A stretch of DNA of 64,000 bases. It comes from Luteolibacter sp. GTDB lineage: Bacteria; Verrucomicrobiota; Verrucomicrobiia; Verrucomicrobiales; Akkermansiaceae. The position numbers and the translations under genes were made by a program. How positions within the stretch are numbered: the stretch's first letter is position 1; every line of letters begins with the position of its first letter. This document shows, in pieces, positions 44,835 to 60,861 of this stretch. The stretch spans positions 396-64,395 of the forward strand of contig JBLRWN010000009.1 in the NCBI GenBank assembly GCA_047921195.1, given 5' to 3'. Below the pieces are notes generated by a model, which saw only the letters and a program-made list of their open reading frames with translations, was not told the DNA's origin and did no database searches.

Positions 44835-44907
44835 GCGAGGATAGCTCAGTTGGTAGAGCAGTTGGCTTTTAACCAATTGGTCCTGGGTTCGAGTCCCAGT
44901 CCTCGTA
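44835..44907 (+). tRNA. tRNA-Lys (anticodon TTT), CCA not encoded
   Basis: Acceptor GCGAGGA/TCCTCGT, D arm GCTC/GAGC, anticodon arm GTTGG-CTTTTAA-CCAAT, T arm CTGGG-TTCGAGT-CCCAG. Confidence 0.97.
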
Positions 44908-45314
44908 CTTCCCTTTTCAACGCTGCCTGACGTGCAGCGTTTTTTGTTTCTGGCAACTCCACCCACCGTTCGACGAGAGGGCTGGGACGAGAACCCCTGC
45001 GCAGCATCATGGGTTCGACTGCCACTTTCGATCGCATCGAAACATCCATCTCACCGCGAAGCGCACCCCGCAGAGACGCAGCACAGCGAAGTCAATCCCA
45101 GTCCTCGTACTTCCCTTTTCAACGCTGCCTGACGTGCAGCGTTTTTTGTTTCTGGCAACTCCACCCACCGTTCGACGAGAGGGCTGGGACGAGAACCCCT
45201 GCGCAGCATCATGGGTTCGACTGCCACTTTCGATCGCATCGAAACATCCATCTCACCGCGAAGCGCACCCCGCAGAGACGCAGCACAGCGAAGTCAATCC
45301 CAGTCCTTGTACTT
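44894..45314 (+). repeat. Exact 202-bp tandem duplication starting in the tRNA T-loop, plus a third imperfect tRNA 3'-end copy
   Basis: tcccagtcctcgtactt at 44894 and 45096, tcccagtccttgtactt at 45298; intervening sequences identical by eye. Confidence 0.92.
44919..44945 (+). terminator. Rho-independent terminator after tRNA-Lys (second copy 45121-45147)
   Basis: aacgctgc-ctgacgt-gcagcgtt followed by a T-run. Confidence 0.8.
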
Positions 45315-45570
45315 CATTGCTAAAGTGCTGAAATTCAAATGATTGCGAATTTCTCGCCAGCCCGGAAATTGCCGAATGTGCATGAAAATGTGTAGTGTGT
45401 TTGTATTTGGCCTATTTTATCCATAGGCGTCCGAATGGTGTAAAATGGCCACTTTGCCCCACCATTTCACCCGCCAATCTAAATCCGGATCGTCCTCGCC
45501 ACCTTCCCCCACTCCCCGCGCCCGGCCACGCGTGATAGACGACGCGGCATTTTTCCGGTAGTCTCACCCC

Positions 45571-45846
45571 ATGAACTTCGATTGGCGTGGCCGGGTGATC
45601 CTCCAGAAACTCGCGGAGGGCTGCATCGTGCGTGAGGCGGCGGCAGCGGCGGGCATCACCAAGCGGGCCGTGAAACTCCGCATGGCGTCGAACGCTGGAT
45701 TCCGTGAAGCGGTCGCTCAGGCCCGTGAGGCAGGCGCAGACGAACGACGCTTCCGCCTGTGGCTGCGTCATCACTTCCGTGGCCGTCGTCCGCCTACGGG
45801 GAAAGGACACGGCGGTCGGCCAGCGTTCAGCTATGGCCGCCGGTGA
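45571..45846 (+). CDS. Small HTH-like protein resembling phage terminase small-subunit-type HTH proteins
   Basis: ILQKLAEGCIVREAAAAAGIT...FREAVAQAREAG pattern; resemblance recalled, not searched. Confidence 0.4.
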   Translation: MNFDWRGRVILQKLAEGCIVREAAAAAGITKRAVKLRMASNAGFREAVAQAREAGADERRFRLWLRHHFRGRRPPTGKGHGGRPAFSYGRR

Positions 45847-45905
45847 GGAGTCCGAGTGAATTCCGGCTGGCAAGCGAGTTCACAAAGCCCCATATTCGGA
45901 TTGCC

Positions 45906-46112
45906 ATGGTCACTCAACAATACCGCGAAGCCAACGAGCTTGCCGACCTCCTCGACTTCTACGAAGACGCCAGCAAATCCAAAGTCGCAAAACCCGAAGA
46001 ATTCGCCGACCTCATCGCCAGAACCCGAGCCGACCTCGCCGAGCAAGAGCGAATCGACGGCAAGCCAGCCGACCCAAGGGAACAGCGCCAAGAATTCCTC
46101 GTGGCGACCTGA
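45906..46112 (+). CDS. Small hypothetical protein
   Basis: 68-aa helical ORF with host-like codon usage. Confidence 0.45.
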   Translation: MVTQQYREANELADLLDFYEDASKSKVAKPEEFADLIARTRADLAEQERIDGKPADPREQRQEFLVAT

Positions 46113-46335
46113 TCCCGCCTTTGATCCCTCAATCTTTCTCGATTTCGTTAGGGTCGTCGGCCTGCGGGGCGTGATCAATGCGGTCTACCAACATTACTTA
46201 CGGTCTTTTTTGACCTTCTTCAGCTTTTGCGTGACCGGCCTTGGGCCGCCATCTTCCGCACCCACGGGTCTTTCGACTTCGAGAAGTCTTGCGGCTTGGC
46301 GGTTCAAAATTCCCAATCCGCAGGTGGCATCGCTC

Positions 46336-47382
46336 TCACCCATCCTGCATCGCCCTCACCTCGTCGCGGACCAGGCGCACCAATTCCGGCGGTGCAATCG
46401 CCTTGGCCTGGCGGCCGAAGCTCAGCACCCAGCGCACCACCTCTTCCAATCGGCCCACCTCGAATCTTACCTCCACCGGGTTGCCTTTCGCATCGAGCAT
46501 CTTGACCTCCTGCGTCGGATGCCAGCGGCGCTCTTGGGCCAACCGCGCCGCATACTGGCGCAGTTCCACCCGCACCACGTGCCGGGTCTCATCGCCATCG
46601 ACATTCCACACGCCGAACGATCGCCGCAAGTAAGTCGCACCATCGAAATCTGCCGACCGTTCGAATCGGCCTTTCATCACCTTGGTGTTTGAGATCCTCG
46701 GCAAAGCGAACGTCCGCAGCGCCGCGCGGTCCAGATCATGCGCGATCAGATACCAGCCACCCTCGACCTCGCCGAGATGCAGTGGTTGCACCGCTCTGAC
46801 CTCTCCCTCGTCCGCCCCGAGCTTGCGGTAGAGGAAGGAAATTTCACGCTGGTCCAGCACCGCCTTGGCCAGCTTGCCGAAGGCCCCGAGCACCTTCGTG
46901 TCTTGAACCACCGCTTTGCGCGAAAACGCCTCGTCGAGATCGTTCCACGTGAACCCCACCTTCCCCAGCATACCCTGCGTGAGCTTCGCGAAGGCCGCGC
47001 TCAGCGCATCCGACACCCGCGTCCCCCGGATCCCGCGCAGCGCGCTGCGGGTGAAAAACAACGTCGCCAGCTCGTCCTCCGACAACTGGAACACCGGAAA
47101 ATCCGACACATCCCCGTCGTAGCGGTAGCCGTGCAGATCCTCGCAATACACCAGCGGCAGACCCAGCGAATCGCGCATGAAATTGATGTCGCGCTGGATC
47201 GTCTTGCGCGTCACCCCCAACCGCTCCGCCAGCGTCGAACAGTTCGGCAGGCCGCCTTTGCAGATCACCGCATGAATCTCGTAGATCCGCTGAATCGGCC
47301 GCCGCGTGCTGCCATCGCGCGGAGCATGCACCGCCGGATTCGCAACGGACGACTTCGGAGCAGGGCGGGAGCGGGTTTTCAT
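46336..47382 (-). CDS. HTH-WYL-WCX transcriptional regulator (YafY/PafB-like)
   Basis: LAERLGVTRKTIQRDI HTH; QPLHL..GGWYLIAHD; RTFALPRI; EVVRWVLSFG. Confidence 0.92.
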   Translation of the reverse strand: MKTRSRPAPKSSVANPAVHAPRDGSTRRPIQRIYEIHAVICKGGLPNCSTLAERLGVTRKTIQRDINFMRDSLGLPLVYCEDLHGYRYDGDVSDFPVFQLSEDELATLFFTRSALRGIRGTRVSDALSAAFAKLTQGMLGKVGFTWNDLDEAFSRKAVVQDTKVLGAFGKLAKAVLDQREISFLYRKLGADEGEVRAVQPLHLGEVEGGWYLIAHDLDRAALRTFALPRISNTKVMKGRFERSADFDGATYLRRSFGVWNVDGDETRHVVRVELRQYAARLAQERRWHPTQEVKMLDAKGNPVEVRFEVGRLEEVVRWVLSFGRQAKAIAPPELVRLVRDEVRAMQDG

Positions 47383-47624
47383 CGGGTAGGTTCGGGTGGA
47401 AGATTCTCAAGATCCTGCTGCAGCGACTCAGGAGTAAACGACGGGATCCTGCGGCGGAATAGCTCGTCGTCGAACTCGAATCGGTTCATTCCAGCGATAC
47501 CAGCCGCCACGGATCTGGGAATTCTTCCGCTCGAAAATAGCGAGACGGCCAGCTCCAGCCTCAATTCGCTTTCGTGAAACGAAGTGAGTGCCGGATCATC
47601 TGGCAAGGTCAAGATCACGCCCAA
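47379..47624 (-). CDS. UPF0175-family protein (putative antitoxin)
   Basis: ELRLELAVSLFSSGRIPRSVAAGIAGMNRFEF..EL..RRIP; TTG start; 4-nt overlap with the WYL gene. Confidence 0.75.
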   Translation of the reverse strand: MGVILTLPDDPALTSFHESELRLELAVSLFSSGRIPRSVAAGIAGMNRFEFDDELFRRRIPSFTPESLQQDLENLPPEPTR

Positions 47625-47752
47625 GCTGTATTCCGAAACAACGGGATGCCAACTTCAAAAAAAATGACGGATTCCGAGCGTTTTTCACACCCTACCCCCG
47701 CCGTTGTCCCACCCCGGGGGGTAAAAACGGACATGCTGAAACACGAAAACCG

Positions 47753-47827
47753 TGTGAGCTTCGCGAACCTTCATTGATGCAAAACCTGTTTGCTTGGACT
47801 GAGGTTACGAGGTCAAATTCAGAAATG
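47753..47827 (+). repeat. Left copy of ~75-bp inverted repeat
   Basis: tgtgagcttcgcgaac...cctgtttgcttggactgaggttacgaggtcaaattc; reverse complement at 53514-53588. Confidence 0.9.
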
Positions 47828-47834
47828 AGACCAA

Positions 47835-47869
47835 CCTTCAACCTTCAACCTTCAACCTTCAACCCTTAA
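47835..47869 (+). repeat. (ccttcaa)x4 plus cccttaa heptamer array
   Basis: Read directly; same unit family as 51979-52062. Confidence 0.85.
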
Positions 47870-47882
47870 CTCTCCCACCTCC

Positions 47883-48224
47883 ATGCACCCCTTCGCCCCC
47901 GGCGACCGCGTCGTCGCCATCAACCTCGACATTTCCGTTCCGTTGTATCCGAACGGAGATTGTAGCGCTCACCCCTTTCTTTTTCCGGACGGACCATTGC
48001 GGCGCAATGTGGTTTACCGTGTTGATGCGGTCTGTGATCGCAAAGGTCGCCAAGGACTCTACCTCTGCGGGATGCGTATTTTCTGGGGAGGGCGCGATAT
48101 CGCTTGGGATTCCTCCCGCTTCCGCAAGGTTGAAGAGGTCGGCCACCCCCCAGTGGCCGTCAAAAAAGCAAAACCCGTGAGAGCCAAAAGCATTCAAAAA
48201 ACTCCCTCAACGATCACCGCATGA
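47883..48224 (+). CDS. Hypothetical protein (SH3/KOW-like start FAPGDRVV)
   Basis: 113-aa ORF; ATGA overlap with the SLOG gene. Confidence 0.55.
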   Translation: MHPFAPGDRVVAINLDISVPLYPNGDCSAHPFLFPDGPLRRNVVYRVDAVCDRKGRQGLYLCGMRIFWGGRDIAWDSSRFRKVEEVGHPPVAVKKAKPVRAKSIQKTPSTITA

Positions 48225-48856
48225 CGCTGGACACCTTCGCCTCCCTCATCTCCTCCGCGCCCGCCCCGGTGATCCTCATCGAAGGCCGTCGCTCGATCCC
48301 GGATGACGTCGCGCACCTGGCCCGGCGGGTTTCCTCCATGCTGGCCACGCGCTTTCCCGCCCTGCGCTTCCGCTCCGGCAATGCCACCGGGACCGACCAA
48401 GCATTCGCTGCAGGCGTGATCGACGTGGCACCCGAACGCCTGGAAATCATCGCCCCCTACGCCATGCACCGCGCCAAGTCCCGCCACCCGCTCGTGCGTT
48501 ACGAGTCACCGGAATCCCTCAGCGAAGAGGAGTTGGAACAAGTGAAATCGCTTACCATGGCCGCCACCCCCGCCAATAAATCCTTGATCCGCTGCTACGG
48601 CCGTGGCGGACGCGCCGCCGCCCAGGCTGCCTGCCTGATCCGCGACACCCTGAAAGTCACCGGCATGAATGAGTCGGCGCGCCGAGTAGTCACGGCGGAT
48701 CGAGCCGAGTCCGCCCTACCCATCCCCACCGCCGCCCTGTTCTGGGTCGATCCCGCCGAACCCGAAACCGGCGGCACCGGCCACACCATCCGCGTCTGCC
48801 GCCTCCAAGGCGTCCCTGTGATCTTCCAACGCGATTGGCAGGCCTGGGCAGTATGA
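48221..48856 (+). CDS. SLOG-superfamily (DprA/YpsA-like) nucleotide-binding protein
   Basis: ILIEGRR, FRSGNATGTDQAF, GGTGHTIRVC..QGVPV. Confidence 0.7.
   Translation: MTLDTFASLISSAPAPVILIEGRRSIPDDVAHLARRVSSMLATRFPALRFRSGNATGTDQAFAAGVIDVAPERLEIIAPYAMHRAKSRHPLVRYESPESLSEEELEQVKSLTMAATPANKSLIRCYGRGGRAAAQAACLIRDTLKVTGMNESARRVVTADRAESALPIPTAALFWVDPAEPETGGTGHTIRVCRLQGVPVIFQRDWQAWAV
48729..48849 (+). repeat. 121-bp direct repeat, copy 1 (3' end of SLOG gene)
   Basis: Matches 49975-50095 with 5 substitutions counted by eye. Confidence 0.9.
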
Positions 48857-48910
48857 TGCTTTATTTCACATGTTGCATTTATTTCAGATGGATGTCAGAT
48901 TATCTCCGCC

Positions 48911-49348
48911 ATGAGTACCACCTTAGAACCATCCCGTTTAACCCCTGGCGATCAAGGCGCCTTGCGCAGTCTGCTGGAGGCGTTGCACGGCCCCGGCGAT
49001 TCCGCCAACGCCACGATCACCGTGGGCAATCGACCGATTTCATTGCCAACACCTGCCCTCGGACTTGTCACCGAGCTGTTGGAACATCTTGCCGCAGGAC
49101 GCTCTGTCACGGTGCTTGGCGCTGAAGAGGAAATTTCACCACGCGAAGCGGCGGAGCTGTTGGGAGTCTCCCGACCGTTTGCCTCCCGGCTCTTCGATGA
49201 TGGGCAGATTCCCAGCCGCCGGGTGGGCACCCACCGCCGTGCCTACATCAAGGATGTGCTCGCCTACCGGGAACGCCAGCACACCGCACGGCGTGCAGCC
49301 CTCGACGAACTCGCGGCAGAAGGCCAACGACTCAACCTTGGATACTGA
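48911..49348 (+). CDS. Excisionase-like HTH protein, antitoxin of PIN pair
   Basis: EISPREAAELLGVSRPFASRLFDDGQIPSRRVGTHRR; RRAALDELAAEGQRLNLGY. Confidence 0.85.
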   Translation: MSTTLEPSRLTPGDQGALRSLLEALHGPGDSANATITVGNRPISLPTPALGLVTELLEHLAAGRSVTVLGAEEEISPREAAELLGVSRPFASRLFDDGQIPSRRVGTHRRAYIKDVLAYRERQHTARRAALDELAAEGQRLNLGY

Positions 49349-49352
49349 AGGA

Positions 49353-49922
49353 ATGAGCCCCTCCGTTGTTGTCCTCGATGCCTGCACGCTCTACCCGGCG
49401 GCCTTGCGCGACGTCCTGATGCGACTGGCTCTTCACCAACTCATCCACGCCCGCTGGACGGATGCCATTCACGACGAATGGATAGAGGCGGTGCTCCGCG
49501 ACCGGCAGGATCTTACCCGTGAGCGCTTGCAACGGACCCGTGAACTGATGGATTTTCATTCGGAGGGTAGTCTGGTCACGGGTTACGAACATCGGATTCA
49601 AGATCTCGAACTACCCGATAAGGATGACCGCCATGTGCTGGCAGCCGCCATCGAAACGGAAGCCGACAGCATTCTCACTTGGAATTTGAAGGACTTCCCC
49701 GTGGCTTTACTCGCCAGCCATGGAATCCACGCGACGACCCCGGACGAGTTGCTCTCCAGACTCAGTAAAGACCACCCGGAGGAGATGATCACCGTCCTGC
49801 GCGAGGCGCGTCTCTGCTTGAGACAGCCACCGGTTTCGGCCGCCGAATACCTTGCGACCTTGAGCAACCAAGGACTGATCCGCACCTGCGCAATTCTCCA
49901 ACCGCGAATTCATGAACTGTAA
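49353..49922 (+). CDS. PIN-domain toxin (VapC-like)
   Basis: VVLDACTLYP, WTDAIHDEW, DKDDRHVLAAA, ILTWNLKDFP. Confidence 0.88.
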   Translation: MSPSVVVLDACTLYPAALRDVLMRLALHQLIHARWTDAIHDEWIEAVLRDRQDLTRERLQRTRELMDFHSEGSLVTGYEHRIQDLELPDKDDRHVLAAAIETEADSILTWNLKDFPVALLASHGIHATTPDELLSRLSKDHPEEMITVLREARLCLRQPPVSAAEYLATLSNQGLIRTCAILQPRIHEL

Positions 49923-49974
49923 TGTCAGCAATCCCGTACATCCTCACGGTTGGAAATGATCCAGTCTCTCTGAT

Positions 49975-50102
49975 CCGCCGCCCTGTTCTGGATCGACCCC
50001 ACCGACCCCGAAGCCGGCGGCACCGGCCACACCATCCGCGTCTGCCGCCTCCAAGGCGTCCCTGTGATCTTCCAACGCGATTGGCAGGCCTGGGCGACTT
50101 GA
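49975..50102 (+). pseudogene. Orphan 3' fragment of SLOG gene (direct repeat copy 2)
   Basis: Encodes AALFWIDPTDPEAGGTGHTIRVCRLQGVPVIFQRDWQAWAT-stop with no 5' part. Confidence 0.85.
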
Positions 50103-50105
50103 TGC

Positions 50106-50193
50106 GCTTATGACACAATCCCACCACCAACCTAACCTCCACCCCGATTCCGCTTCACACCCATAGGCCTTTTCGCTTTTCTCACAGAGTGCT
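50106..50193 (+). repeat. Conserved ~88-bp intergenic element, copy A
   Basis: gcttatgacacaatc...ctccaccccgattccgcttcacacc...gccttttcgcttttctc...gtgct; homologous to 52227-52313. Confidence 0.8.
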
Positions 50194-50243
50194 CAGCAAC
50201 CAACTGGAGCCTTCTGAAAACCTCCCCCACACAGCCATCCGAC

Positions 50244-51620
50244 GTGCATCCCGAATCCCAACACCTCGAATACAAACGCGAGATTACCGACACTCTCGAA
50301 CGCGAGGTCGTGGGCTTTCTCAACAGCCGCGAAGGCGGGCGCATCCTGATCGGAGTGGATGATTCTGGAACGATCCTCGGACTCGCCGATCCGGATGGCG
50401 ATCAGCTCAAGATCAAAGACCGCTTGAAGCAGAATATCCAGCCCTCATGCCTCGGCCTCTTCGACGTATTGATCGAGGAGAGCGAGGGAAAAACTTGGAT
50501 CAAACTGCTCGTCGCCAGCGGTTCGGAAAAACCCTACTACCTCCGCAAGCAAGGCATGAGCCCCCGGGGCTGCTTTCTGCGCATCGGCAGCGCCACCGAG
50601 CCCATGCCAGAGCGCCAAATCGAGGCCCTTTTCGCCAAACGCACACGCAATTCCATCAGCCGCATCGCATCCCCACGCCAGGACCTCAAATTCTCCCAAC
50701 TCAAAATTTACTACGAAGCAACGGGACGCGAACCCAATGCCCAGTTTCTCAAAAACCTCGAACTCTTCACCGAGGACGACCGCTACAACTACGCCGCCTA
50801 TCTATTGGCGGACATCAACAACACGTCCATCAAAGTCGCCAAATATCGTGGCACAGACCGGGTCGATCTGATCGAAAACGAGGAATACGGAAATTGCTGC
50901 CTGGTCAAGGCGACCAAACAGGTGCTCGACAAACTCGATCTCGAAAACCGCACCCTCACCCGCATCACCCCGAAAGAGCGTCAGGAAACCCGCCTTCTCG
51001 ATCCCGTCGCCCTGCGCGAGGCCGTGATCAACGCCATCATCCACAACGACTACAGCTACGAAGGCGTTCCCAAGTTCGAACTGTTTGCCGACAGACTGGA
51101 GATCACCTCAACCGGCAGCATTCCCCAGGGCCTGAGCGAAGCCGAGTTTTTCGAAGGCTACTCCATCCCCCGCAACAAGGAGTTGATGCGCATCTTCCGC
51201 GACCTCGACATGGTGGAATACCTTGGGTCCGGCATGCCCCGCATCCTCCGGGCCTACCCTAAGGAATGCTTCCGCTTCTGCGAAAACTTCACCCGCATGG
51301 TATTCCCATTCCCTTTGTCAGGGGCAGAGTCAGGGGCAGAGTCGAGGGCCCAGTCAGGGGCCCAGTCAGGGGCCCAGTCAGGGGCCCAGTCAGGGGCCCA
51401 GTCGGAACGCGTTCTCCTAGCGCTCACAGACTGCCCACTTTCTTCTCAAGAAATCGCTCTCATCCTCGACTTGGAATCCAAATCAGGATCCTTGAAGCGC
51501 TCACTGAAACAACTGCTCGAAGAAGGCTTGGTGGAATACACCATCCCCGAAAAACCCAACAGCCGCCTCCAAAAATACCGACTCACCGCACAAGGCAGAA
51601 AGATGAAGGATGAAGGATGA
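50244..51620 (+). CDS. AlbA_2 (Schlafen-like) domain plus ATP-binding RecG-C-like domain plus C-terminal wHTH
   Basis: ESQHLEYKRE, FLNSREGGRILIGVDDSG, ALREAVINAIIHNDYS, RNKELMRIF, GSGMPRI, KPNSRLQKYRLT. Confidence 0.85.
   Translation: MHPESQHLEYKREITDTLEREVVGFLNSREGGRILIGVDDSGTILGLADPDGDQLKIKDRLKQNIQPSCLGLFDVLIEESEGKTWIKLLVASGSEKPYYLRKQGMSPRGCFLRIGSATEPMPERQIEALFAKRTRNSISRIASPRQDLKFSQLKIYYEATGREPNAQFLKNLELFTEDDRYNYAAYLLADINNTSIKVAKYRGTDRVDLIENEEYGNCCLVKATKQVLDKLDLENRTLTRITPKERQETRLLDPVALREAVINAIIHNDYSYEGVPKFELFADRLEITSTGSIPQGLSEAEFFEGYSIPRNKELMRIFRDLDMVEYLGSGMPRILRAYPKECFRFCENFTRMVFPFPLSGAESGAESRAQSGAQSGAQSGAQSGAQSERVLLALTDCPLSSQEIALILDLESKSGSLKRSLKQLLEEGLVEYTIPEKPNSRLQKYRLTAQGRKMKDEG
51318..51401 (+). 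repeat. 7 x 12-bp in-frame tandem repeat (SGAE/SGAQ linker)
   Basis: tcaggggcagag x2, tcgagggcccag, tcaggggcccag x4. Confidence 0.92.
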
Positions 51621-51622
51621 AG
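51602..51622 (+). repeat. (gatgaag)x3 heptamer array supplying the start codon of the four-helix gene
   Basis: Read directly; reverse complement of the downstream ccttcat-type array. Confidence 0.8.
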
Positions 51623-51972
51623 GACAGACAGACCTCGTGGAACGGACGACCGAGTTCGCACTCCGGGTCGTGAGAATGTTCGTCGCCCTGCCGAAGACGG
51701 AGGAAGCCCGCGTTCTCGGCAGACAAGTCTTGCGCTCCGGCACATCCGTCGGCGCGAACTACCGTGAAGCCCAGCGCGCCCGCTCAAAAGCCGAATTCGT
51801 TTCCAAAATCGGCGACTGTCTCAAAGAGCTCGACGAGTCATCCTACTGGCTCGAACTCCTCGTCCGCTCCGAAATAGTCCCCGAAACCAAACTCGCGGCC
51901 CTCCGCGACGAGAACAACCAACTCTTGGCCATTTTCACCGCAATCTCTAAGAAAGCCAAAGGAGCCCCCTAA
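51610..51972 (+). CDS. Four-helix-bundle protein (23S rRNA IVS-protein/Avd-like family)
   Basis: LVERTTEFALRV, LGRQVLRSGTSVGANYREA.RARSKAEFVSKI...LKELDES.YWLELL. Confidence 0.93.
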   Translation: MKDEGQTDLVERTTEFALRVVRMFVALPKTEEARVLGRQVLRSGTSVGANYREAQRARSKAEFVSKIGDCLKELDESSYWLELLVRSEIVPETKLAALRDENNQLLAIFTAISKKAKGAP

Positions 51973-51978
51973 TCTTCC

Positions 51979-52062
51979 CCCTCAGCCCTCATCCTTCAGC
52001 CCTCATCCTTCAACCCTCATCCTTCAACCCTCATCCTTCAACCTTAAACCTTCATCCTCCAT
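51979..52062 (+). repeat. 12 degenerate heptamers (ccctcat/ccttcaa family)
   Basis: ccctcag ccctcat ccttcag ccctcat ccttcaa ... cctccat. Confidence 0.9.
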
Positions 52063-52234
52063 CCACAAAGCCAAAGGCCTCGACTCCAAAGCCGTCATCC
52101 TCATCGGCATGCCCCCGCAGCAAGATCTCGCCAGCGACTACGAGAAATACACCTGGTTCATGGCCGTCAGCCGGGCGCGGCAGATGCTGGCCGTGGTGGA
52201 AGGGCGAAGCGGCCACTCCGACGAGTGCTTATAA
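52061..52234 (+). pseudogene. 3' fragment of a UvrD-like SF1 helicase gene
   Basis: IHKAKGLDSKAVIL (motif V-like) and FMAVSRARQML (motif VI-like), then stop; no 5' part. Confidence 0.75.
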
Positions 52235-52313
52235 CACAATCTAAGATCTGCTAAATCTCCACCCCGATTCCACTTCACACCCTCCCGCCTTTTCGCTTTT
52301 CTCCGAACGTGCT
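52227..52313 (+). repeat. Conserved ~88-bp intergenic element, copy B
   Basis: Homologous to 50106-50193. Confidence 0.8.
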
Positions 52314-52359
52314 TTACCGACCATTCACCTCCCTCAACTTGCGTCCCACTTGAAGTGCA

Positions 52360-53385
52360 ATGAGACAGGATCTCCCACAGCCCTCCGGCGAATTCCTCTT
52401 TTACTCCGGCCCCGATGGACGGATGAAGGTGGAGTGCCGCTTTCAAGACGAGACGCTCTGGCTCACCCAGCGGCTCATGGCCGATCTGTTCGGGGTCGGC
52501 GTTCCCGCGATCAACAAACACCTGAAAAACATCTTCGAGTCCGGGGAATTGAGGGAAGAAGAGGCTATTTCCATTTTGGAAACAACCACTCCCCACGGTG
52601 CAATTGAGGGGAAAACCCAGACCCAGAAGACGCGTTTCTACAACCTCGACGCCATCATCGCGGTGGGCTACCGGGTCAACAGTTACCAAGCCACGCAGTT
52701 CCGGATATGGGCGACGCGGACTCTCAAAGAGTTCATCATCAAGGGCTTCGTGATGGACGACGAGCGTCTCAAGCAGGGCGGCACGGTCTTTGGCGTGGAT
52801 TACTTTGAGGAATTGCTGGAGCGCATCCGCGAAATCCGGGCCAGCGAGCGACGGTTTTACCAGAAAATCACCGACATCTACGCCACTGCGGTCGATTATG
52901 ACCCCAAGGCACCGGTCACCCGCGAATTCTTTGCCACCGTCCAGAACAAGCTCCACTGGGCCATCACCGGCAAGACCGCCGCCGAGCAGATCTACGCCTC
53001 CGCCGATGCCGAGAAACTCCACATGGGACTCACCAGCTGGAAAAACGCACCCCAGGGAAAAATCCTGAAGTCGGACATCACGGTCGCTAAAAACTACCTG
53101 AGCGCGAAGCACATCGAGGAGCTGAATCGCATCATTTCCGCCTACCTCGAACTCGCCGAAAACCGCGCCCGCCGGGGCATCTTTACGAGAATGAATGAAT
53201 GGGTCACGTTCCTCCACAGCTTCCTGGAACTTTCCAACTACCCCATCCTGCAAGACGCCGGGAAGGTTTCCGCCGTAGAAGCCCACCTGAAAGCCGAGGC
53301 GGAATTTGAAACCTTCCGCAAACGCCAAGATCTCGAATACCGATCCGACTTCGACGAGGAAATCCGCCGCATCCAAGGAGACTAA
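52360..53385 (+). CDS. RhuM-family protein
   Basis: TLWLTQRLMADLFGV, FYNLDAIIAVGYRVNS..ATQFRIWAT, DYFEELLERIREIRASERRFYQK, FFATVQNKLHWA. Confidence 0.92.
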   Translation: MRQDLPQPSGEFLFYSGPDGRMKVECRFQDETLWLTQRLMADLFGVGVPAINKHLKNIFESGELREEEAISILETTTPHGAIEGKTQTQKTRFYNLDAIIAVGYRVNSYQATQFRIWATRTLKEFIIKGFVMDDERLKQGGTVFGVDYFEELLERIREIRASERRFYQKITDIYATAVDYDPKAPVTREFFATVQNKLHWAITGKTAAEQIYASADAEKLHMGLTSWKNAPQGKILKSDITVAKNYLSAKHIEELNRIISAYLELAENRARRGIFTRMNEWVTFLHSFLELSNYPILQDAGKVSAVEAHLKAEAEFETFRKRQDLEYRSDFDEEIRRIQGD

Positions 53386-53513
53386 GAATCTAGCAGTGAT
53401 TCATTTCAGTATTTGCCCTCGCTCCGCTCACGCCATGCCAATTCCGCTTCGCCAAAAGCAACCGCCGCTACCGCTCCCACCGCATTCAGCCTCTAAAAAT
53501 TTCAGCTTCTCCG

Positions 53514-53588
53514 CATTTCAGAATTTGACCTCGTAACCTCAGTCCAAGCAAACAGGCTTCGCATCAAATAAAGTTCGCGAAGCTCACA
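53514..53588 (-). repeat. Right copy of ~75-bp inverted repeat
   Basis: gaatttgacctcgtaacctcagtccaagcaaacagg...gttcgcgaagctcaca; reverse complement of 47753-47827. Confidence 0.9.
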
Positions 53589-53596
53589 GGGCTTTA

Positions 53597-53628
53597 AGCT
53601 TTTCAGCTTTTCAGCTTTTCAGATTTTT
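53597..53628 (+). repeat. (agcttttc)x3 plus agattttt octamer array
   Basis: Read directly; related degenerate units at about 53497-53520 and on the minus strand at about 63805-63845. Confidence 0.75.
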
Positions 53629-53779
53629 CGCATTTACCCCACACCCCCCCATCTTCCTCCCGTGAACCTGGACCACGCGATCGAACGGCTCTACGCACTC
53701 AAGGTGGACACGACCACCCGCGACGGCGACGGCACCCCGCACGAGAAACCGCACAAGCCGTTGCTCCTCCTCGCCGTCC

Positions 53780-53828
53780 GTGGCTGGAGCCTCCGGCTCC
53801 AGGCCGTCCCCGGAGCATCTTGCTCCGG
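53780..53828. repeat. REP-like palindrome pair inside HNH remnant
   Basis: ctggagcc-tcc-ggctccag and ccggagca-tct-tgctccgg. Confidence 0.7.
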
Positions 53829-53940
53829 ATTTCCAAATGCCCTCGCCACACCCGATCACATCCCGTGGTGCCAGGAACTCCGCGACCGCTTCACCGCGCG
53901 CTTCGAGGTCGTCCGTAAGCTGAACGACCGCAACAGCCAA

Positions 53941-54002
53941 GGGAGCGCGGGCGTCTCGCCCGCTTCTTCTCCCTCCAATGCGGCCAAGATGGCCGCGCTC
54001 CC
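53941..54002. repeat. REP-like composite palindrome inside HNH remnant
   Basis: gggagcgcgggcgtctcgcccgc ... gcggccaagatggccgcgctccc. Confidence 0.75.
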
Positions 54003-54307
54003 CACCAACGGGCCTCGTCGCGCCGTAGCCCAATGGCGAAGGCGGATCGCCCTCTGCACAAACCACCACTAGGTCATGGACCGCGACATCATCGCTCCCG
54101 GGGCCGGACCTGCACTGGCATGTTTCGAAACTGATCGGTCCGCGCAGATCGAACAGCGAAGAGAAGCTCGCGGAGCTGGCAGGCCAGGCCTTGCTTCTGC
54201 CCAAAGATGAAGCTTTCTATCCAAATGCGGAGGGGTGGAGTGGAGGCTCAAGAAATTGACCGCCTGAAAATCATGGGCCGCAGGCAAAAACCCGCCATGA
54301 GCACCGA

Positions 54308-54658
54308 ATGCCGGATTGCCAGCCACTCCACAAAGTGTTTCATTTCCCCGGAACGACGATCACCCTCCAACCTTCCGTCCTGCAATGGGCGCGCCAGCGG
54401 GCACGGCTCGGCGTGGACGCGTTGGTCGCGAAATTCCGCAGGAAGGACGCGGAAAAAAGAATATCGGAGCAACCCATGATCGAAGAGCCGCAATTATCAA
54501 AACAGCTAACTGCTGCGGAGCGGCGACGCTTCGGCACGGCGCTTGTGGCGAACACGCGAAAAGGCAAAACGCTGTACCGCAACGGACTCGACCTGCTCGA
54601 CATGAAACGGGAATCCTCGTTCAAGGAATTCGCCCGGAACCTCGATTTCCCGCTCTGA
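54308..54658 (+). pseudogene. Internally deleted HTH-ImmA/IrrE-like gene
   Basis: N-terminal LQPSVLQWARQRARLGVDALVAK joined to C-terminal RRFGTALVANTRKGKTLYR..LL.MKRESSFKEFA; no HExxH core; family recalled, not searched. Confidence 0.5.
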
Positions 54659-54662
54659 CCCG

Positions 54663-54770
54663 ATGTATCTGCCTCCCAATGTCTGCGAAGCAATGGATGT
54701 GAAATGGGGCAAATGCTACGAGATGTTGAGAAAAGAACAGGCGAGCTTCCATCTTCGACCCGCACCATAA
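54663..54770 (+). pseudogene. Internally deleted DUF4411-like (PIN-like) gene
   Basis: MYL joined directly to PNVCEAMDVKWGKCYEMLRKEQASFHL, resembling the DUF4411 C-terminus; usual position after ImmA/IrrE genes. Confidence 0.4.
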
Positions 54771-54874
54771 TATTCCATCCAAGGTTTTGACACATCGGCT
54801 CCTGAAACCTAAAAGCCTTCCAACATGTCTCTGCCAATCCATCACGATTTAATTTATTAGAAGCCGGAAGATTA

Positions 54875-56068
54875 ATGAAGGTCACACCCACATCTAGTCA
54901 ATTTGTCAGCCTGTTCTCCGGGTGTGGCGGGTTCGATCTAGGTCTCATGAATTCTGGATTTATCCCATTGCATGCCTACGACCACTGCAAGGAGGCTGTT
55001 CAACATTACCAAAAGAATGTATGCGCAAGAGTTGAGCAAATCGATCTTACGCAGTTCGCACCCAGTCACTCGAAAGCGCCGGAGGTTGTGATCGCAGGGC
55101 CGCCGTGCCAAGGGTTTTCAACGGCGGGAAAGCGTGACGTGGCTGATAAGCGCAACCATTTACTGCCCTTGGCGGGCCGCCTCGCTGCTGACCTCAATCC
55201 GAAAGTCATTGTCATCGAAAACGTAGCCGCCGCCTCTTCTGGTGCTCATCGTCGCTATTGGGACGATGTCGAGAATTTCCTACGTTCCAAAGATTATCGA
55301 ACCCACACCCTGCGCGCGGACGCGGCTGAACTCGGCCTCGCTCAATCCCGTCGCCGCCTGCTCCTCTTTGCTTGGAACACCCGGCGCGACATCGATTTCG
55401 CGATTGTCCCTGTGCCAAAGGTATCCTTGGCCGATGTCTTGAGTGGCGTCGAACATCTTCCCAACCACGACCCGGAATCTTTAGACCCGTGCTCGCGCGA
55501 CTATCGAATCGCTACCCGCATCGGTCCAGGGCAAAAACTCAGCAATGTTCGGGGTGGCCCGCGCTCCGTCCACACATGGAACATCCCGGATGTATTTGGA
55601 ACAACCACAGCTGCCGAATGTCGCATGCTCGAGTTCATCATGCGCGTCCGCAGGCAACAGCGACGCCGGGATTTTGGCGACGCCGATCCGGTTTCTGTCG
55701 CCACGTTGAAGAGGGAATTCAAGAACCAAACTATGTGCTTGGTTCGTTCTCTTCTAGCAAAAGGATATTTGCGTCGGATCGGTGCATATCTCGACCTCTG
55801 CCACAGTTTCAATGGCAAATACCGACGTTTTCAGTGGGACAACAAGGCCTGCACCGTTGATACCCGTTTTGGCGAGGCGCAGCTTTTCCTGCACCCGAAC
55901 GAACACCGCCCCTTCACTATCCGCGAGGCTGCCCGCATCCAAGGTTTCCCAGACGACTACGAGTTCGATTGCGCCAAGCGCGCTGCGTTCCGCCTGATCG
56001 GGAATGCCGTCCCCCCTCCCATGGGGAGCATGGCCGCCAAATTCACACGGGAACTCCTTGGACAATGA
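54875..56068 (+). CDS. DNA (cytosine-5) methyltransferase
   Basis: Motifs I LFSGCGG, IV GPPCQGFS, VI ENV, VIII QSRRR, IX TIREAARIQGFPD, X IGNAVPP. Confidence 0.93.
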   Translation: MKVTPTSSQFVSLFSGCGGFDLGLMNSGFIPLHAYDHCKEAVQHYQKNVCARVEQIDLTQFAPSHSKAPEVVIAGPPCQGFSTAGKRDVADKRNHLLPLAGRLAADLNPKVIVIENVAAASSGAHRRYWDDVENFLRSKDYRTHTLRADAAELGLAQSRRRLLLFAWNTRRDIDFAIVPVPKVSLADVLSGVEHLPNHDPESLDPCSRDYRIATRIGPGQKLSNVRGGPRSVHTWNIPDVFGTTTAAECRMLEFIMRVRRQQRRRDFGDADPVSVATLKREFKNQTMCLVRSLLAKGYLRRIGAYLDLCHSFNGKYRRFQWDNKACTVDTRFGEAQLFLHPNEHRPFTIREAARIQGFPDDYEFDCAKRAAFRLIGNAVPPPMGSMAAKFTRELLGQ

Positions 56069-57129
56069 GCGCACGCGACCGCATCCTCGAAATGGTAACC
56101 GCTTGGCAGGCCGTGACCCCCAAGCCTGAGGACGCTGCGGAACTCGCCCGCATTCTGGATCAGCTTCGTTTTCTCGACCGCGTCAAGTTCACCCCCTATG
56201 TGCCCACTCTATACTCGAGCCACCCCGCATCTTTCGAGGAACGCTTCCATGGCTGGCTCAAGAACCCGAACCTTTCCTCGGAGCAGAGCCGCGATCTTTT
56301 CGAATTCGCTCATCGCATCGCCTTTTTCTCCTTCGATGACTTCACAGCCATGTTTCAGAACGCATTCCACGGCCCGATCAGCCGCTGGTGCATTACTAAA
56401 GCGGGCATCCGACTCGATCAAGCCAACTGGCAAGCACGACTCCGGGAGGCACGCTTTCAGCAGACTTGGTTTTGCCCGGTCACCGACAGCCTTCTCATCA
56501 GCGTCTTTCACCACGTCAACGGCATTGAGGGCAAGGACCGCAAACCGACCTTCCGCGAACTGATGCACTTCGGCGACGAAACCGAAGATCGTAACACCAA
56601 CAAAATCCACAAACACATCCGCAACAAAGGATACAAACGCATAGTCCTTCTCGAAGACTTCGTCGGCACCGGCGGTCAATCCCTGGAATCGGTCGATTGG
56701 GCAATCAGAAATCTTGGGCTACCAGTTCTCTTCTGCCCGATGATCATCGCACCCGAGGGCGCAGCAAAGTATCGCGATCTGAAGAATACGCTTGACCGAG
56801 AAAGAGCCAATAATCCTGACCTGCCCGAATTCGAATTTACGCCTGTCATAGAATTGGGCCACGATTGTTTCTGCCATAACACTGAAACCACACCAGACGC
56901 ATTATTCGACCGAATCCGCCAACTCGCCGAGGAGGTCCACAACCGATTGACCGAATCTCAGCAGCACTGCCGCGAAGGAGCGCTTGGTTGGTGGAACGCC
57001 GATTCCCCGCAAAAGGGAGCCGCAGTCGTCATGTTTTCTAACACGCCGAACAACTCTCTGCCACTCCTCCATCACGGCTCCGTCGAATGGAGCCCGCTCT
57101 TCCCTCGCGTCGCCCGCCAACCGCTATGA
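56065..57129 (+). CDS. Phosphoribosyltransferase-like conflict protein (PRTase-CE-like)
   Basis: RIVLLEDFVGTGGQ PRPP-loop-like motif; VVMFSNTPNNSLPLL; WSPLFPR; ATGA overlap with the MTase stop. Confidence 0.7.
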   Translation: MSARDRILEMVTAWQAVTPKPEDAAELARILDQLRFLDRVKFTPYVPTLYSSHPASFEERFHGWLKNPNLSSEQSRDLFEFAHRIAFFSFDDFTAMFQNAFHGPISRWCITKAGIRLDQANWQARLREARFQQTWFCPVTDSLLISVFHHVNGIEGKDRKPTFRELMHFGDETEDRNTNKIHKHIRNKGYKRIVLLEDFVGTGGQSLESVDWAIRNLGLPVLFCPMIIAPEGAAKYRDLKNTLDRERANNPDLPEFEFTPVIELGHDCFCHNTETTPDALFDRIRQLAEEVHNRLTESQQHCREGALGWWNADSPQKGAAVVMFSNTPNNSLPLLHHGSVEWSPLFPRVARQPL

Positions 57130-59261
57130 ACGGGTATCTCCCAAATCCATTCACTGAAGCCTACGTGACCCACACGGTTTCGGACGAGCACTTCGTTCGG
57201 TTCTTCAGCCCGGTGCTCGTCGCGTCGGCGGGTGCCATTCTCCAACCCGGCAACGTTGTCATAAAAGGCACTCAGGGTTCGGGTAAGAGCATGCTTCTCC
57301 GCCTTTTAGATCCGGAGATCCGTATCGCCTATTACAACATCGATAGCCGGGAAGAAAACCCGGATACCCGATACCCAGTCTCGGCGGGTCTGCGAAACTT
57401 CGTCTCCACCCGGGTGGATCTCAACAAAAGTGGCCTGCTCGACATCGTCAATACTTTGCCCGATTCGCCTAGCTCTGATGACCTTGCGGACATGACCAAG
57501 TCCTTCGCCGACTTCTTCAACTATTGGCTAATGCGGGGGCTGCTTCTGGGTCTCGATAAAATTAGCACTAACCCTGTCCCCTTCGGTGGCCTAGTCGATA
57601 CTGTTAACAGGGATGCCTTCGCCGCTGCCCTCGCCTCCCAAGACTGCTGGAGTGGTGCTCTGCACGACGCACTCGACTGGGAGAGCCTTAAAGAAGGTGT
57701 CAAGAACCGGATCATCGACTACCGTGCCTGGGCCAACGGCAATCGTGATCTGCCCGCATCCCTCCGCCAATCCCGCACCATGATCGGCGAGCCACTCGCA
57801 CGTGCCGCAGAACTACTCAAGACTACAGGAGTGATTGACCCCGCGACCAACGTCTTCGCCACTATCGACCAGATCGAAGCCCTCTGGATGCGGGACGAAG
57901 GTAAACGCGGGCTGGGTGAGCGCCTCCGCCGCGAGCTTCATGAGGTGCTCGGGAAACGCGATGATCGTGTTTCCTACCGCATCGGGGCTCGCCGCTACGA
58001 CTGGGGCAAAGGCGGCTCCCTCGCCATGCGCGATGGGCGCGAGCTGGAGGAAGAAAGGGATTTCCAAATCTTCGACATCGACGCACTCTTAAGGCGCGGC
58101 GAAAACGCTAAAAACTGGACCTTCCGCCGCCTTGTCAAAGATGTCTTCCGCAGACGGGTTCAGACTACTTTTCAAGAACCCGCCCAAATACCAGAGAATT
58201 TGCATGAATTCGCCTCCTTCTTCGGCCCTTCGCCTACTCCCCAGGAAGTTGTAGCTGAGACCATCAAAAATCCCGATTTTCAAAAACTGATCAAACTCGA
58301 CAACGATTGGCCCGAGCCGTGGCGGGAAACTATCCTGCGCTGCTATCGCCGGGAAATCCAAGGCATTCCCACGCCGCCACCGGCGAACTACCCGTGCGAC
58401 CCGCTCAATGCACTACTGCTCTCTGCTTGGGGGCTTCAGACCGGCGGCAAAGGTAAGAACCCAGCCAAGACCCACCGCCGACAGCTTGAACCACCCCAAT
58501 CCGCCGCCGACGCACCTTTGAGCGCTGCCAAGAAATATTGGCGAAAGGAGCGCTATCCTCAGGCTGTCTTGCAGTTGATCTCCCGTCATCAGCAGAAGAT
58601 GCTGTGGTGGGGCGAGGCTAAGGTGCTTTCACTTTGCGGCAGCAACATACTTCGCTTCATCACCATCTGCCGCGTCACTTGGGACTATTGGCAACGACTT
58701 ACCGATGGCGAACCTTCCATTTCGTCGCGGAATGCCATCGTTCGCGCCGATATCCAGTCCCGCGCCATCTTCGAAGCCTCCCGCAAAGTCCACGAGGCTC
58801 TGATGCGCCAGCCCGGACAGCCCGCCGGAGATGTGCGCAGCCGTTTCCTCAATAAGATCGCCTCTTGGCTGCGCTCCCGCCTGATCGACGACATCGCTAT
58901 GTCCAACCCCGGACAAAACGGATTTTCCCTGCGCGTGAGCGACCTCGAAGCAGAGCCGGATCTCCGACAGCTCATCGAAGAGGCCGTCGGCTGGGGCGAT
59001 CTCTATGAGATCGACCATACTTCGAAAATCAAAACCGAGCGTTCCAGCGAACCACGAAAGAAATACTACATCAACCCAGCGCTATCCCCATTCTATGAAC
59101 TGCCGGAAGCCCATACGAAGGAGCCTGTGTATGCCACACTCGACGACATCTTGAAGCACGCCATCGATTGCGGAGCCATCAAGGCAACGTCCACGGCCGC
59201 CGCGTCCACGCCAGCCGAGGAGAACCCCAACCAGCCATGGCTGTTCCCCAAAGAACCGTGA
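57126..59261 (+). CDS. P-loop ATPase (ORC/CDC6-like conflict ATPase) with C-terminal wHTH-like region
   Basis: NVVIKGTQGSGKSMLLR Walker A; VFATIDQIE Walker B-like; YYINPALSPFYELP; ATGA overlap. Confidence 0.75.
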   Translation: MNGYLPNPFTEAYVTHTVSDEHFVRFFSPVLVASAGAILQPGNVVIKGTQGSGKSMLLRLLDPEIRIAYYNIDSREENPDTRYPVSAGLRNFVSTRVDLNKSGLLDIVNTLPDSPSSDDLADMTKSFADFFNYWLMRGLLLGLDKISTNPVPFGGLVDTVNRDAFAAALASQDCWSGALHDALDWESLKEGVKNRIIDYRAWANGNRDLPASLRQSRTMIGEPLARAAELLKTTGVIDPATNVFATIDQIEALWMRDEGKRGLGERLRRELHEVLGKRDDRVSYRIGARRYDWGKGGSLAMRDGRELEEERDFQIFDIDALLRRGENAKNWTFRRLVKDVFRRRVQTTFQEPAQIPENLHEFASFFGPSPTPQEVVAETIKNPDFQKLIKLDNDWPEPWRETILRCYRREIQGIPTPPPANYPCDPLNALLLSAWGLQTGGKGKNPAKTHRRQLEPPQSAADAPLSAAKKYWRKERYPQAVLQLISRHQQKMLWWGEAKVLSLCGSNILRFITICRVTWDYWQRLTDGEPSISSRNAIVRADIQSRAIFEASRKVHEALMRQPGQPAGDVRSRFLNKIASWLRSRLIDDIAMSNPGQNGFSLRVSDLEAEPDLRQLIEEAVGWGDLYEIDHTSKIKTERSSEPRKKYYINPALSPFYELPEAHTKEPVYATLDDILKHAIDCGAIKATSTAAASTPAEENPNQPWLFPKEP

Positions 59262-60277
59262 GCACGACTTACCAATTTCGCCCATGGGGCGAACTAACCT
59301 GGACTCTGGGACTTAGCGCACCACGCAACTGGAGGCTCCTCGGTTGCGTTGCCGCCGAAGAGCGCTCTGTCGCCGCCCTGCTTGCCCTCCACCAAATGCA
59401 GGCGCTAGAAAGGGTTGAAATGCTCCGCATCCTCGATCCCGAACCAACCGACGCAGCTGCTGAGGAATCGTTCATCCGACAGCGCCTCGACGCCTGTGCG
59501 GTCGCCGGGGTTCAATGCCAACCCGATACCACCACGCTCGACGCCCCGCTGCAAAACCCTGCATGGAGGAAACGATTGGCGTTTCCGCAGAACACCTCCT
59601 TGTGTCTTGACATCAGTTCCCTACCCAAACGTTTTTTCTTTCCCATCATCAAGGCCGCGCTCCTCTCTCCTAACGTGTGCGACTTTCTCATCCTCTACAC
59701 CAAGCCGCGCAATTACCCGGACGGCCCACTTGCCAGCAATCCCCGCGACTGGGCTACTCTCACAGGCTTTGGCTGCGAGGATCCTGATAACCAGATTGCC
59801 GCCGCCGCCCGTCTGATTGTCGGCGCGGGGTTTGCCGTGGACGGGTTGCATGACCACCTTGAGGGCCAAGGGAGTCGCATGGAGGTGGACGTCCTCATCC
59901 CTTTCCCTGCAGAGCCATGGACTTCCGTCCGCCGCTCTTGGGAATCCGCACGCACCATTGAGGAAGCCCTTGGAGCGGATCCTGATAATGAGCTCGCGGA
60001 GGTGAAACCCATCCACCATCGCATGGGTGCTCTTGATACATCCACCGCATTCGACCGCCTCCGTATTCTGACGCAGAACGGCACAAGTCACGCCGCGCTC
60101 GCCCCGCTTGGCCCCAAGCCTCTCTCCGTCGCCATGTGCCTCCTCGCCACCCAATCCGACCGCTTCCCCGTCTATTATGCCCAGCCCAGAACCTACGCCT
60201 TGGACTACTCCACCGGATGCGAGACGACCTACGCCTACTGGATCAAGCACCAAGGCAATAATTATTATAAAATATAG
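59258..60277 (+). CDS. Uncharacterised alpha/beta protein with two CARF-like Rossmann half-motifs
   Basis: CLDISSLPK and ALAPLGPKPLSVAMCLLA; YYAQPRTY; GTGA overlap with the ATPase stop; 339 aa. Confidence 0.55.
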   Translation: MSTTYQFRPWGELTWTLGLSAPRNWRLLGCVAAEERSVAALLALHQMQALERVEMLRILDPEPTDAAAEESFIRQRLDACAVAGVQCQPDTTTLDAPLQNPAWRKRLAFPQNTSLCLDISSLPKRFFFPIIKAALLSPNVCDFLILYTKPRNYPDGPLASNPRDWATLTGFGCEDPDNQIAAAARLIVGAGFAVDGLHDHLEGQGSRMEVDVLIPFPAEPWTSVRRSWESARTIEEALGADPDNELAEVKPIHHRMGALDTSTAFDRLRILTQNGTSHAALAPLGPKPLSVAMCLLATQSDRFPVYYAQPRTYALDYSTGCETTYAYWIKHQGNNYYKI

Positions 60278-60381
60278 ATTTATACACGGATATTATCTGT
60301 GTCTGGAATCATGCCGACTATCGAAAAAATCTCGATGCAATCTGCCTCATATTCAGTGATCTTGCCGAATAACTACTTAAG

Positions 60382-60753: not shown

Positions 60754-60861
60754 GGAATTAGTGCTACCAGGCAGAATCCCGGTTGCCAGGAAAAAAATGA
60801 ATTTTTTTTCGGGTTGCTTCTCCCCTCATTATCAATTTGCGACATTGTTTATTCAGGCAAT

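Follow-up and report, generated by a model that had tools for sequence, protein, structure and literature searches.

Introduction

[quoted passage not shown] Escherichia coli K-12 carries 22 TLR copies at ten loci; three of its TLRs are read-through small RNAs, and the function of the remainder is unknown (PMC8144298). The 5S-linked TLRs rrA, rrB and rrF lie between the terminators T1 and T2 and are transcribed by read-through, and E. coli TLRs have been detected as RNAs, with movement not reported (PMC8144298). In the tRNA operons of E. coli, TLR/RtT repeats have stood without explanation since 1978. Here we analyzed a stretch of 64,000 nucleotides from Luteolibacter sp. (Verrucomicrobiota, family Akkermansiaceae; GenBank assembly GCA_047921195.1, contig JBLRWN010000009.1, positions 396 to 64,395; referred to as the window), in which a tRNA-Lys(UUU) gene is followed by a tandem array of 202-bp units. 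The array very probably consists of two copies of a TLR, the family typed by the E. coli RtT RNA (Rfam RF00391). It is a new, divergent member of the already described TLR/RtT kind.

The literature on E. coli TLR/RtT (rttR) elements further includes Rudd 1999 and Bosl and Kersten 1991/1994; PMC8144298 is Stenum et al. 2021. The TLR design is not peculiar to Enterobacteria. It is present throughout a family of Verrucomicrobiota, and in many other phyla copies that share its motifs stand behind tRNAs. This offers a comparative handle on an old question, with a much deeper alignment for structural work and with cultured Luteolibacter and E. coli as test beds.

Structure of the array behind tRNA-Lys(UUU)

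The original prediction, made from the sequence alone, had described two identical 202-bp units that start in the T-loop of tRNA-Lys and are followed by a third tRNA end with one mismatch. To each unit it had assigned a terminator, a near-antisense copy of the tRNA 3' end, a gaaccc/gggttc hairpin, and a T-arm split by a 76-nt insert that contains the hairpin ttcgat-cgc-atcgaa. All these parts were found again at their positions. Tandem Repeats Finder (TRF) reported a period of 202 bp with 2.1 copies and 99% matches (44894-45315). TLR bodies were delimited with a covariance model, R1, that was built from five copies of this genome. The features of the locus are as follows.

44835..44908, + strand: tRNA-Lys(UUU) gene (ARAGORN; Rfam tRNA, 74.2 bits); its last 15 nt, from 44894, open the repeat
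44894..45095, + strand: repeat unit 1, 202 bp, comprising tRNA 3' end, terminator, spacer and folded TLR body (TRF, BLAST)
45096..45297, + strand: repeat unit 2, 202 bp, 100% identical to unit 1 (BLAST; TRF)
45298..45315, + strand: third copy of the tRNA 3' end, TCCCAGTCCTTGTACTTC, which is the 3' arm of TLR copy 2
44919..44951, + strand: intrinsic-terminator-like hairpin (44919-44941) and T-run between the tRNA and TLR copy 1 (sequence scan)
45121..45153, + strand: second terminator (hairpin 45121-45143) and T-run between TLR copies 1 and 2 (sequence scan)
44971..45113, + strand: TLR copy 1, arm to arm (R1, 133.4 bits)
45173..45315, + strand: TLR copy 2 (R1, 131.5 bits)
44977..44987, + strand: 5' arm GAGGGCTGGGA, pairing with TCCCAGTCCTC (45096-45106) in 11 pairs, one of them G.U
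44989..45018, + strand: helix P1, conserved GAGAACCCC, loop, GGGTTCGA (sequence, comparative data)
45027..45041, + strand: variable hairpin P2, ttcgat-cgc-atcgaa (compensatory changes in 7/7 pairs across the family)
45055..45063, + strand: CGCGAAGCG mini-hairpin with a GNA triloop, replaced by a longer hairpin in some paralogues
45093..45113, + strand: CAATCCC and sense copy of the tRNA-Lys 3' end, the 3' arm of copy 1 (sequence)

Neither ARAGORN nor the Rfam tRNA model called any tRNA in the 64-kb window besides the one at 44835-44908. Copies of its 3' end gave three matches in the window (44894, 45096 and 45298), against 0.17 expected by chance. The motif TCCCAGTCCTCGTAC equals the last 15 nt of tRNA-Lys, and the identity continues through CTTC to a total of 18-19 nt. 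The third copy differs by one mismatch within 45298-45311 (TCCTTGTA). Through this exchange, C>T at 45308, a G-C pair in the stem that closes TLR copy 2 becomes G.U, so that the stem is kept.

TLR copy 1 begins 63 nt past tRNA-Lys and is co-oriented with it. Its antisense arm, acgagagggctggga, occupies 44973-44987, the gaaccc/gggttc hairpin pairs 44991-44996 with 45011-45016, and TGGGTTCGA (45010-45018) is separated from ATCCCAGTCCTCGTA by the 76-nt insert (45019-45094). Taken together, the 5' arm and P1 correspond to an antisense T-arm and, after it, the 5' half of a T-arm in sense orientation. An open reading frame (ORF) of 104 amino acids at 45009-45323 was dismissed because it crosses units whose period is not a multiple of 3. 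Readings of the unit as a tRNA pseudogene, as a transfer-messenger RNA (tmRNA)-like sequence or as another Rfam family were rejected; Rfam gave a tRNA match only.

Relationship to the E. coli TLR/RtT RNAs

The original prediction had named the 178-bp repeats behind E. coli tyrT as a parallel, and this parallel proved to be one of family, with shared motifs and reciprocal covariance-model matches. The E. coli K-12 tyrT units read GGGGAAGGAT-GAGAAGC-ttcgaccaa-GGTTCGA-hairpins-CCCGAAGGG-hairpin-GAGTAATCC, followed by the tRNA-Tyr end TTCCCCCACCACCA. When R1 was run on this locus (2.5 kb searched), its four best matches were exactly the four RF00391 units, end to end but below threshold, with 17.2-13.9 bits and E values of 6e-4 to 4e-3. 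In the opposite direction, RF00391 matched three tandem Luteolibacter units over their full length with 24-26 bits, below the cut-off of 45 bits. Copies from other bacteria bridge this distance. A Prosthecochloris copy scored 42.1 bits with RF00391 and 28.4 bits with R1 at the same site, and a Citrobacter copy behind tRNA-Ser scored 35.3 and 32.5 bits, respectively, likewise at one site. As both models match the Citrobacter and Prosthecochloris copies, the Luteolibacter units are transitively linked to RtT. A Rouxiella copy behind tRNA-Lys passed the Rfam threshold (RF00391, 66.7 bits). What speaks against the assignment is that RF00391 gave no match in the window at E<=10 and none in the genome at E<=1.

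The layout shares several traits with that of the E. coli elements. In both, the element immediately follows a tRNA gene in the same orientation and ends with approximately 18 nt identical to the tRNA 3' end, and tandem units of about 180-200 bp occupy several loci per genome. The 2.1 copies counted here and the five tRNA loci of this genome fit the TLR pattern of multiple loci with one to five tandem copies at each. The order of parts is also shared: an antisense arm ending in GGAT, GAGAAsC, a loop, GGTTCGA, variable hairpins, CCC-GNA-GGG, YAATCC and the tRNA end. RF00391 marks 18 sites in E. coli K-12, which, judged by their coordinates, we take to lie behind Tyr, Pro (proK), Lys/Val, Ser (serX) and Arg/Ser tRNA genes and one 5S gene. 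Host tRNAs overlap in Lys-UUU, Ser-GGA and Pro-CGG. The Luteolibacter units differ in that they belong to another phylum (Verrucomicrobiota), have an identity too low for the Rfam threshold and, unlike E. coli TLR/RtT, lack a tpr-like ORF. An intrinsic terminator separates tRNA and element in the Luteolibacter units and in the 5S-linked rrA, rrB and rrF, whereas the E. coli tyrT units are devoid of it. The locus and its relatives also suggest that RF00391 is far too narrow. The original prediction had also stated that its proposal would fall if the unit matched an already described att-site or tRNA-linked repeat family. Such a match was found, since the element belongs to the described TLR family (PMC8144298).

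Recurrence in the genome and family with tRNA-matched arms

The folded part of approximately 140 nt is not confined to the Lys locus. In the same genome it recurs directly 3' of tRNA-Ser(GCU), tRNA-Ser(GGA), tRNA-Pro(CGG) and tRNA-Pro(GGG), and R1 yielded eight matches in total, at five tRNA loci plus one orphan. Each copy contains the core GAGAACCCC, loop, GGGTTCGA, hairpins and CAATCCC. The core is preceded by the antisense of the T-stem and acceptor 3' strand of its own tRNA and, in each copy of this genome, followed by a sense copy of the end of that tRNA. The two proline loci illustrate the fit, with GGGGTGGCGGGAT in the Pro-CGG copy and GGGCTGGCGGGAT at the same place in the Pro-GGG copy.

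In a set of 151 Luteolibacter genomes, 66 contained R1 matches, reaching 10 copies in a single genome and frequently arranged in tandem at a period of approximately 186-203 bp. At the level of the GTDB family Akkermansiaceae, R1 matches were obtained in 60/201 genomes and 11/20 genera. A co-oriented Lys(UUU), Ser(GGA/GCU/CGA) or Pro(GGG) tRNA gene stood directly upstream in 26 of 29 loci of the relatives, and in Luteolibacter most of the Lys and Ser loci had a terminator between tRNA and TLR. A strict pattern of 30 nt from the core matched nothing in 200 other family genomes or in a contig collection with one genome per species; it failed because the sequence diverges too fast, and relatives were recovered only by the covariance model. 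An empty orthologous site was sought via the upstream gene; its nearest orthologues were <=68% identical, and none was followed by tRNA-Lys.

The match of the arms to the adjacent tRNA was quantified for 48 tRNA-adjacent copies. The 3' arm had a median exact run of 17 nt with its own tRNA versus 6 nt with non-cognate tRNAs, and the 5' arm, taken as its reverse complement, one of 7.5 nt versus 5 nt. The sense arm can thus be called essentially perfect; the antisense arm, though cognate, is imperfect. The outer stem varies with the upstream tRNA while GAGAACC, GGTTYGA and CAATCC stay fixed, as had been put forward for testing in the original prediction. That prediction is partly supported: a small non-coding element tailored to its host tRNA is borne out by the arms of each copy matching its own upstream tRNA, amplification by the tandem arrays of relatives (1-3 or more copies), and the comparison with tyrT also stands.

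Several copies of this genome deviate from the standard unit. In the Pro-CGG array (C52:13433-13745, minus strand), which includes a run of N, the second unit stops inside the last hairpin. At the Pro-GGG locus (C33, approximately 12600-12745, minus strand), a second spacer and 5' arm end exactly at the arm/core junction, immediately after GGGCTGGCGGGA. The orphan core (C3:74855-74990, minus strand) is most like the Pro-CGG copy and has no matching 5' arm. It follows a gene whose C-terminal translation resembles a type I restriction-modification (R-M) methylase and lies approximately 9.5 kb downstream of tRNA-Ser(GGA) and its TLR, with R-M genes in between; the island appears bracketed by TLRs.

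Covariation of the predicted fold

The unit had been proposed to fold into a structure closed by the tRNA 3' end. The predicted fold indeed closes by pairing of the two arms, and its support is comparative, the single-sequence z-score being only -1.46. In an alignment of 54 copies, which was fitted to the model structure so that pairing is somewhat inflated, standard pairs occupied 88.3% of cells versus 75.2% in shuffled alignments, and 0/500 shuffles reached the observed value. Changes on both sides were seen in 20/32 pairs. The covariation score was 0.307, compared with 0.125 for shuffles and 0.02-0.07 when partners were slid by 1-3 columns. An independent analysis with MAFFT and RNAalifold of 12 copies from different phyla recovered the closing stem, P1 and the CCC-GNA-GGG mini-hairpin.

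Wobble pairs were used to distinguish between the strands. In the 54 copies, 102 G.U and U.G pairs stood against 32 A.C and C.A pairs, and one position of P1 is G.U in roughly every second copy. This excess points to the tRNA-sense strand in single-stranded form, not duplex DNA, as the folded molecule. The covariation supports a multi-hairpin fold of the tRNA-sense strand, and the comparative sequence data indicate that this fold is under selection.

Distribution across bacteria and exchange of cores

For a wider survey, the three-block pattern GAGAACC, GGTTYGA, CAATCCC was applied to one genome per species; all counts given here are among the matches listed. At least about 45 pattern matches lie just 3' of a tRNA or tmRNA gene, and nearly all of these carry the 3' end of that gene. 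First copies are located 13-83 nt from the tRNA or tmRNA, later units of an array further away. Approximately half of the matches have no tRNA upstream within range. According to an estimate from the information content of the pattern, these are probably mostly chance matches, a few being copies separated from their tRNA; pattern matches were kept only with a cognate tRNA upstream. The taxa comprise Verrucomicrobia, Alpha-, Beta-, Gamma- and Zetaproteobacteria, Chlorobi (Prosthecochloris), Clostridia, Melainabacteria (Gastranaerophilales), Kiritimatiellae and Rickettsiales, and the hosts are Ser, Lys, Pro, Arg, Glu, His and Gly tRNAs and tmRNA. Behind tmRNA genes, elements built in this manner were observed in Ghiorsea sp. 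(L056, three tandem units) and in a metagenome-assembled genome of the Burkholderiales (L066). We did not find the wide distribution and the covariation of the arms described in the searchable literature, where the term TLR concerns Enterobacteria.

A tree of cores without arms disagrees with tRNA type, requiring 12 label changes compared with a minimum of 2. Well-supported clades mix types: in one, the Pro-GGG copy of this genome groups with the Ser-GGA copy, and in another, Ser-GCU groups with Pro-CGG copies. These mixed clades indicate copying or conversion of cores from one tRNA locus to another, with arms that continue to match the local tRNA. The boundary motifs derived from the T-arm could supply the homology for such an exchange. 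A far-reaching version, in which TLRs form one ancient class of many phyla whose core actively relocates between tRNA loci and is refitted to the new tRNA end via the antisense arm, is rather unlikely. TLRs would then be base-pairing-guided, protein-light mobile or self-copying elements, or else decoys or sensors for enzymes that attack tRNA 3' ends, rather than passive by-products of tRNA operons.

Proposed mechanism and alternative explanations

Taking all data together, the TLR array is on balance best explained as a structured RNA that is produced by read-through, processed at its tRNA-like end and amplified by unequal recombination. Each copy is a structured, non-coding module of approximately 140 nt on the tRNA-sense strand. 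The stem that closes it is formed by the exact copy of the last approximately 18 nt of the host tRNA and the imperfect antisense arm, and within it lie P1 (GAGAACC/GGTTYGA) and three or four small hairpins, several with GNA triloops. Low-level transcription may result from read-through of the terminator after the tRNA, as with E. coli rrA, rrB and rrF. The transcript would then be cut out and stabilized at its 3' end because its paired 3' end may resemble a tRNA 3' end to tRNA-processing nucleases. Local recombination or gene conversion would keep the 3' arm identical to the tRNA, and the same process would expand and contract the array. Selection for the stem would make the 5' arm follow, which would explain why it is imperfect. 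Release from a tRNA precursor by the tRNA-processing machinery, as proposed here for TLRs, is shared with 3'ETS-leuZ and other by-product RNAs of tRNA operons. TLRs differ from 3'ETS-leuZ in having a conserved multi-hairpin fold of their own and a duplicated tRNA end, and a sponge target is not known for them.

For the central step, that the module acts as an RNA made and processed in this manner, the balance of the analysis tips slightly in favor. A processed tRNA-mimic RNA, one of the options in the original prediction, has an experimental precedent in E. coli. The following points count against the RNA reading. A strong terminator separates the tRNA from each TLR copy, and a scan of the array locus for sigma-70-like promoters found none, so that RNA levels may be very low. 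GNA triloops with a closing C-G pair are familiar above all from DNA mini-hairpins. Given these triloops and the tolerance of single-stranded DNA (ssDNA) for G.T wobbles, the sense-strand signal fails to separate RNA from ssDNA. The inflated pairing in the fitted alignment belongs on the same side.

The element could instead be a non-autonomous mobile DNA element, in which folded sense-strand ssDNA rebuilds a duplex copy of the T-arm and acceptor that is inserted at tRNA 3' ends by a recombinase or HUH enzyme acting in trans. CTXphi attP(+) and integron attC are folded single-strand recombination sites of this sort. Such sites reportedly share with TLRs the inverted target-like copies approximately 110 nt apart, which fold to a duplex with a mismatched center, and the arrangement in tandem arrays. 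In the TLRs the rebuilt T-arm duplex is mismatched at its center (GAG opposite YGA), as is said of CTXphi attP, and the GNA triloops, the nearly identical tandem units, the terminator insulating the element from tRNA transcription and the movement or conversion of cores between tRNA loci with cognate arms all suit this explanation. We nevertheless regard it as rather improbable. No Xer- or IntI-type partner was identified, and neither R/L boxes nor dif-like sites are present. No match to the tyrosine recombinase family (PF00589) in this genome lies on a TLR contig, and none was found within approximately 25 kb of the listed TLRs of 10 relatives, save for one that is explained by an ordinary tRNA-integrated island. 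Phage and plasmid collections contained no copy detectable by blastn. Every checked copy has the orientation of the tRNA, or of the displaced 3' fragment of a tRNA, that lies upstream of it, and the imperfect 5' arm (median run of 7.5 nt) suits selection for a stem better than templated copying. The E. coli homologues have been observed as RNAs and are not reported to move (PMC8144298).

The lack of a linked integrase weakens the att-site reading as well, and with it the suggestion in the original prediction of a folded recombination substrate or spare attB array. According to this alternative, the units would be relic or spare integrase attachment sites, that is, attB/attL cores left by serial integration and decay of islands, or ORF-less elements mobilizable in cis; we consider it very unlikely. 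Direct copies of the tRNA 3' end starting in the T-loop, a classic crossover sublocation, bracket each unit, but such repeats are common to att sites and TLRs and therefore do not discriminate. The T-loop sublocation of tRNA-gene att sites was reportedly described by Williams 2002. Location at island hotspots is likewise shared with tyrosine-integrase att sites: the array adjoins a defense island (WYL regulator, HTH-PIN pair, AlbA-type ATPase), and the orphan core lies at the far end of the type I R-M island behind tRNA-Ser(GGA). In contrast to att sites, a conserved folded module of approximately 120 nt stands between the repeats, and an antisense arm is no att-site feature. The body is conserved and covaries from Enterobacteria to Verrucomicrobia and Chlorobi, rather than being decayed island DNA. 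Beyond the array, its contig (C9) has no distal copy of the tRNA-Lys end. Moreover, in both readable island junctions the island had crossed over within the tRNA itself, leaving the TLR downstream of the displaced fragment. In one Luteolibacter locus (L163, G304:C22, 351-1960), a tRNA 3' fragment, a terminator and a TLR come, in this order, after an integrase gene; in another (L077, 5200-5450), AT-rich foreign DNA gives way to a tRNA-Pro 3' fragment beginning in the T-arm, behind which lies a TLR. The layout of the integrase island, with displaced tRNA 3' fragment, terminator and TLR left as a flank, is also seen in L. pohnpeiensis. Insertion of islands into the tRNA with the TLR left behind therefore explains "orphan" TLRs.

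A neutral hitch-hiker would persist by duplication and gene conversion beside recombinogenic tRNA genes, with neither its RNA nor its DNA having a function. This would fit the patchy presence in the genus (66/151 genomes), the shortened units at the two proline loci (C52 and C33) and the fact that no phenotype is known for the E. coli tRNA-linked TLRs after more than 45 years (PMC8144298). Compensatory changes, however, keep at least five helices intact across phyla, and short motifs remain invariant amid a turnover so fast that the 30-nt pattern from this genome matches no other family genome; a functionless repeat is accordingly quite unlikely. The least probable of the alternatives, to which we give hardly any credence, is an assembly artefact with a false duplication of a single unit. 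The genome is a 146-contig draft, and 202-bp units of 100% identity are difficult for short-read assemblers. Against this, the array ends in a third tRNA-end copy with a distinguishing mismatch, and arrays with a period of approximately 200 bp stand behind tRNA-Lys in relatives, on 1.9-Mb contigs and in genomes of 1-3 contigs. This diagnostic third copy and the arrays in near-complete relatives make an artefact improbable.

Further observations at individual loci

Both tRNA-Ser TLRs of this genome (C2, approximately 53790-53850; C3, approximately 84310-84370, minus strand) are followed by a similar extra hairpin, ttcttcgcttccttgaaggaagctacgaatggcaagcc and ttcgtagcttccttgcaggaagcgaagaatggcaagcc, respectively. 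The likeness of the two loci therefore runs past the tRNA-end copy. The Rfam family sX4 (RF02223) gave weak, sub-threshold matches of 29-33 bits that span a tRNA-Ser and the start of its TLR (L073, L078 and L109); the sX4 seed may include a tRNA-Ser-linked region.

Directly downstream of the Lys array, a variable island of the defense type begins (45316-64000; genes assigned by eye from their translations). It comprises genes for a WYL-domain regulator (46336-47382, minus strand), an SLOG/DprA-like gene, an HTH-PIN pair (48911-49922) and an AlbA/Schlafen-type ATPase (50244-51620), plus further genes.

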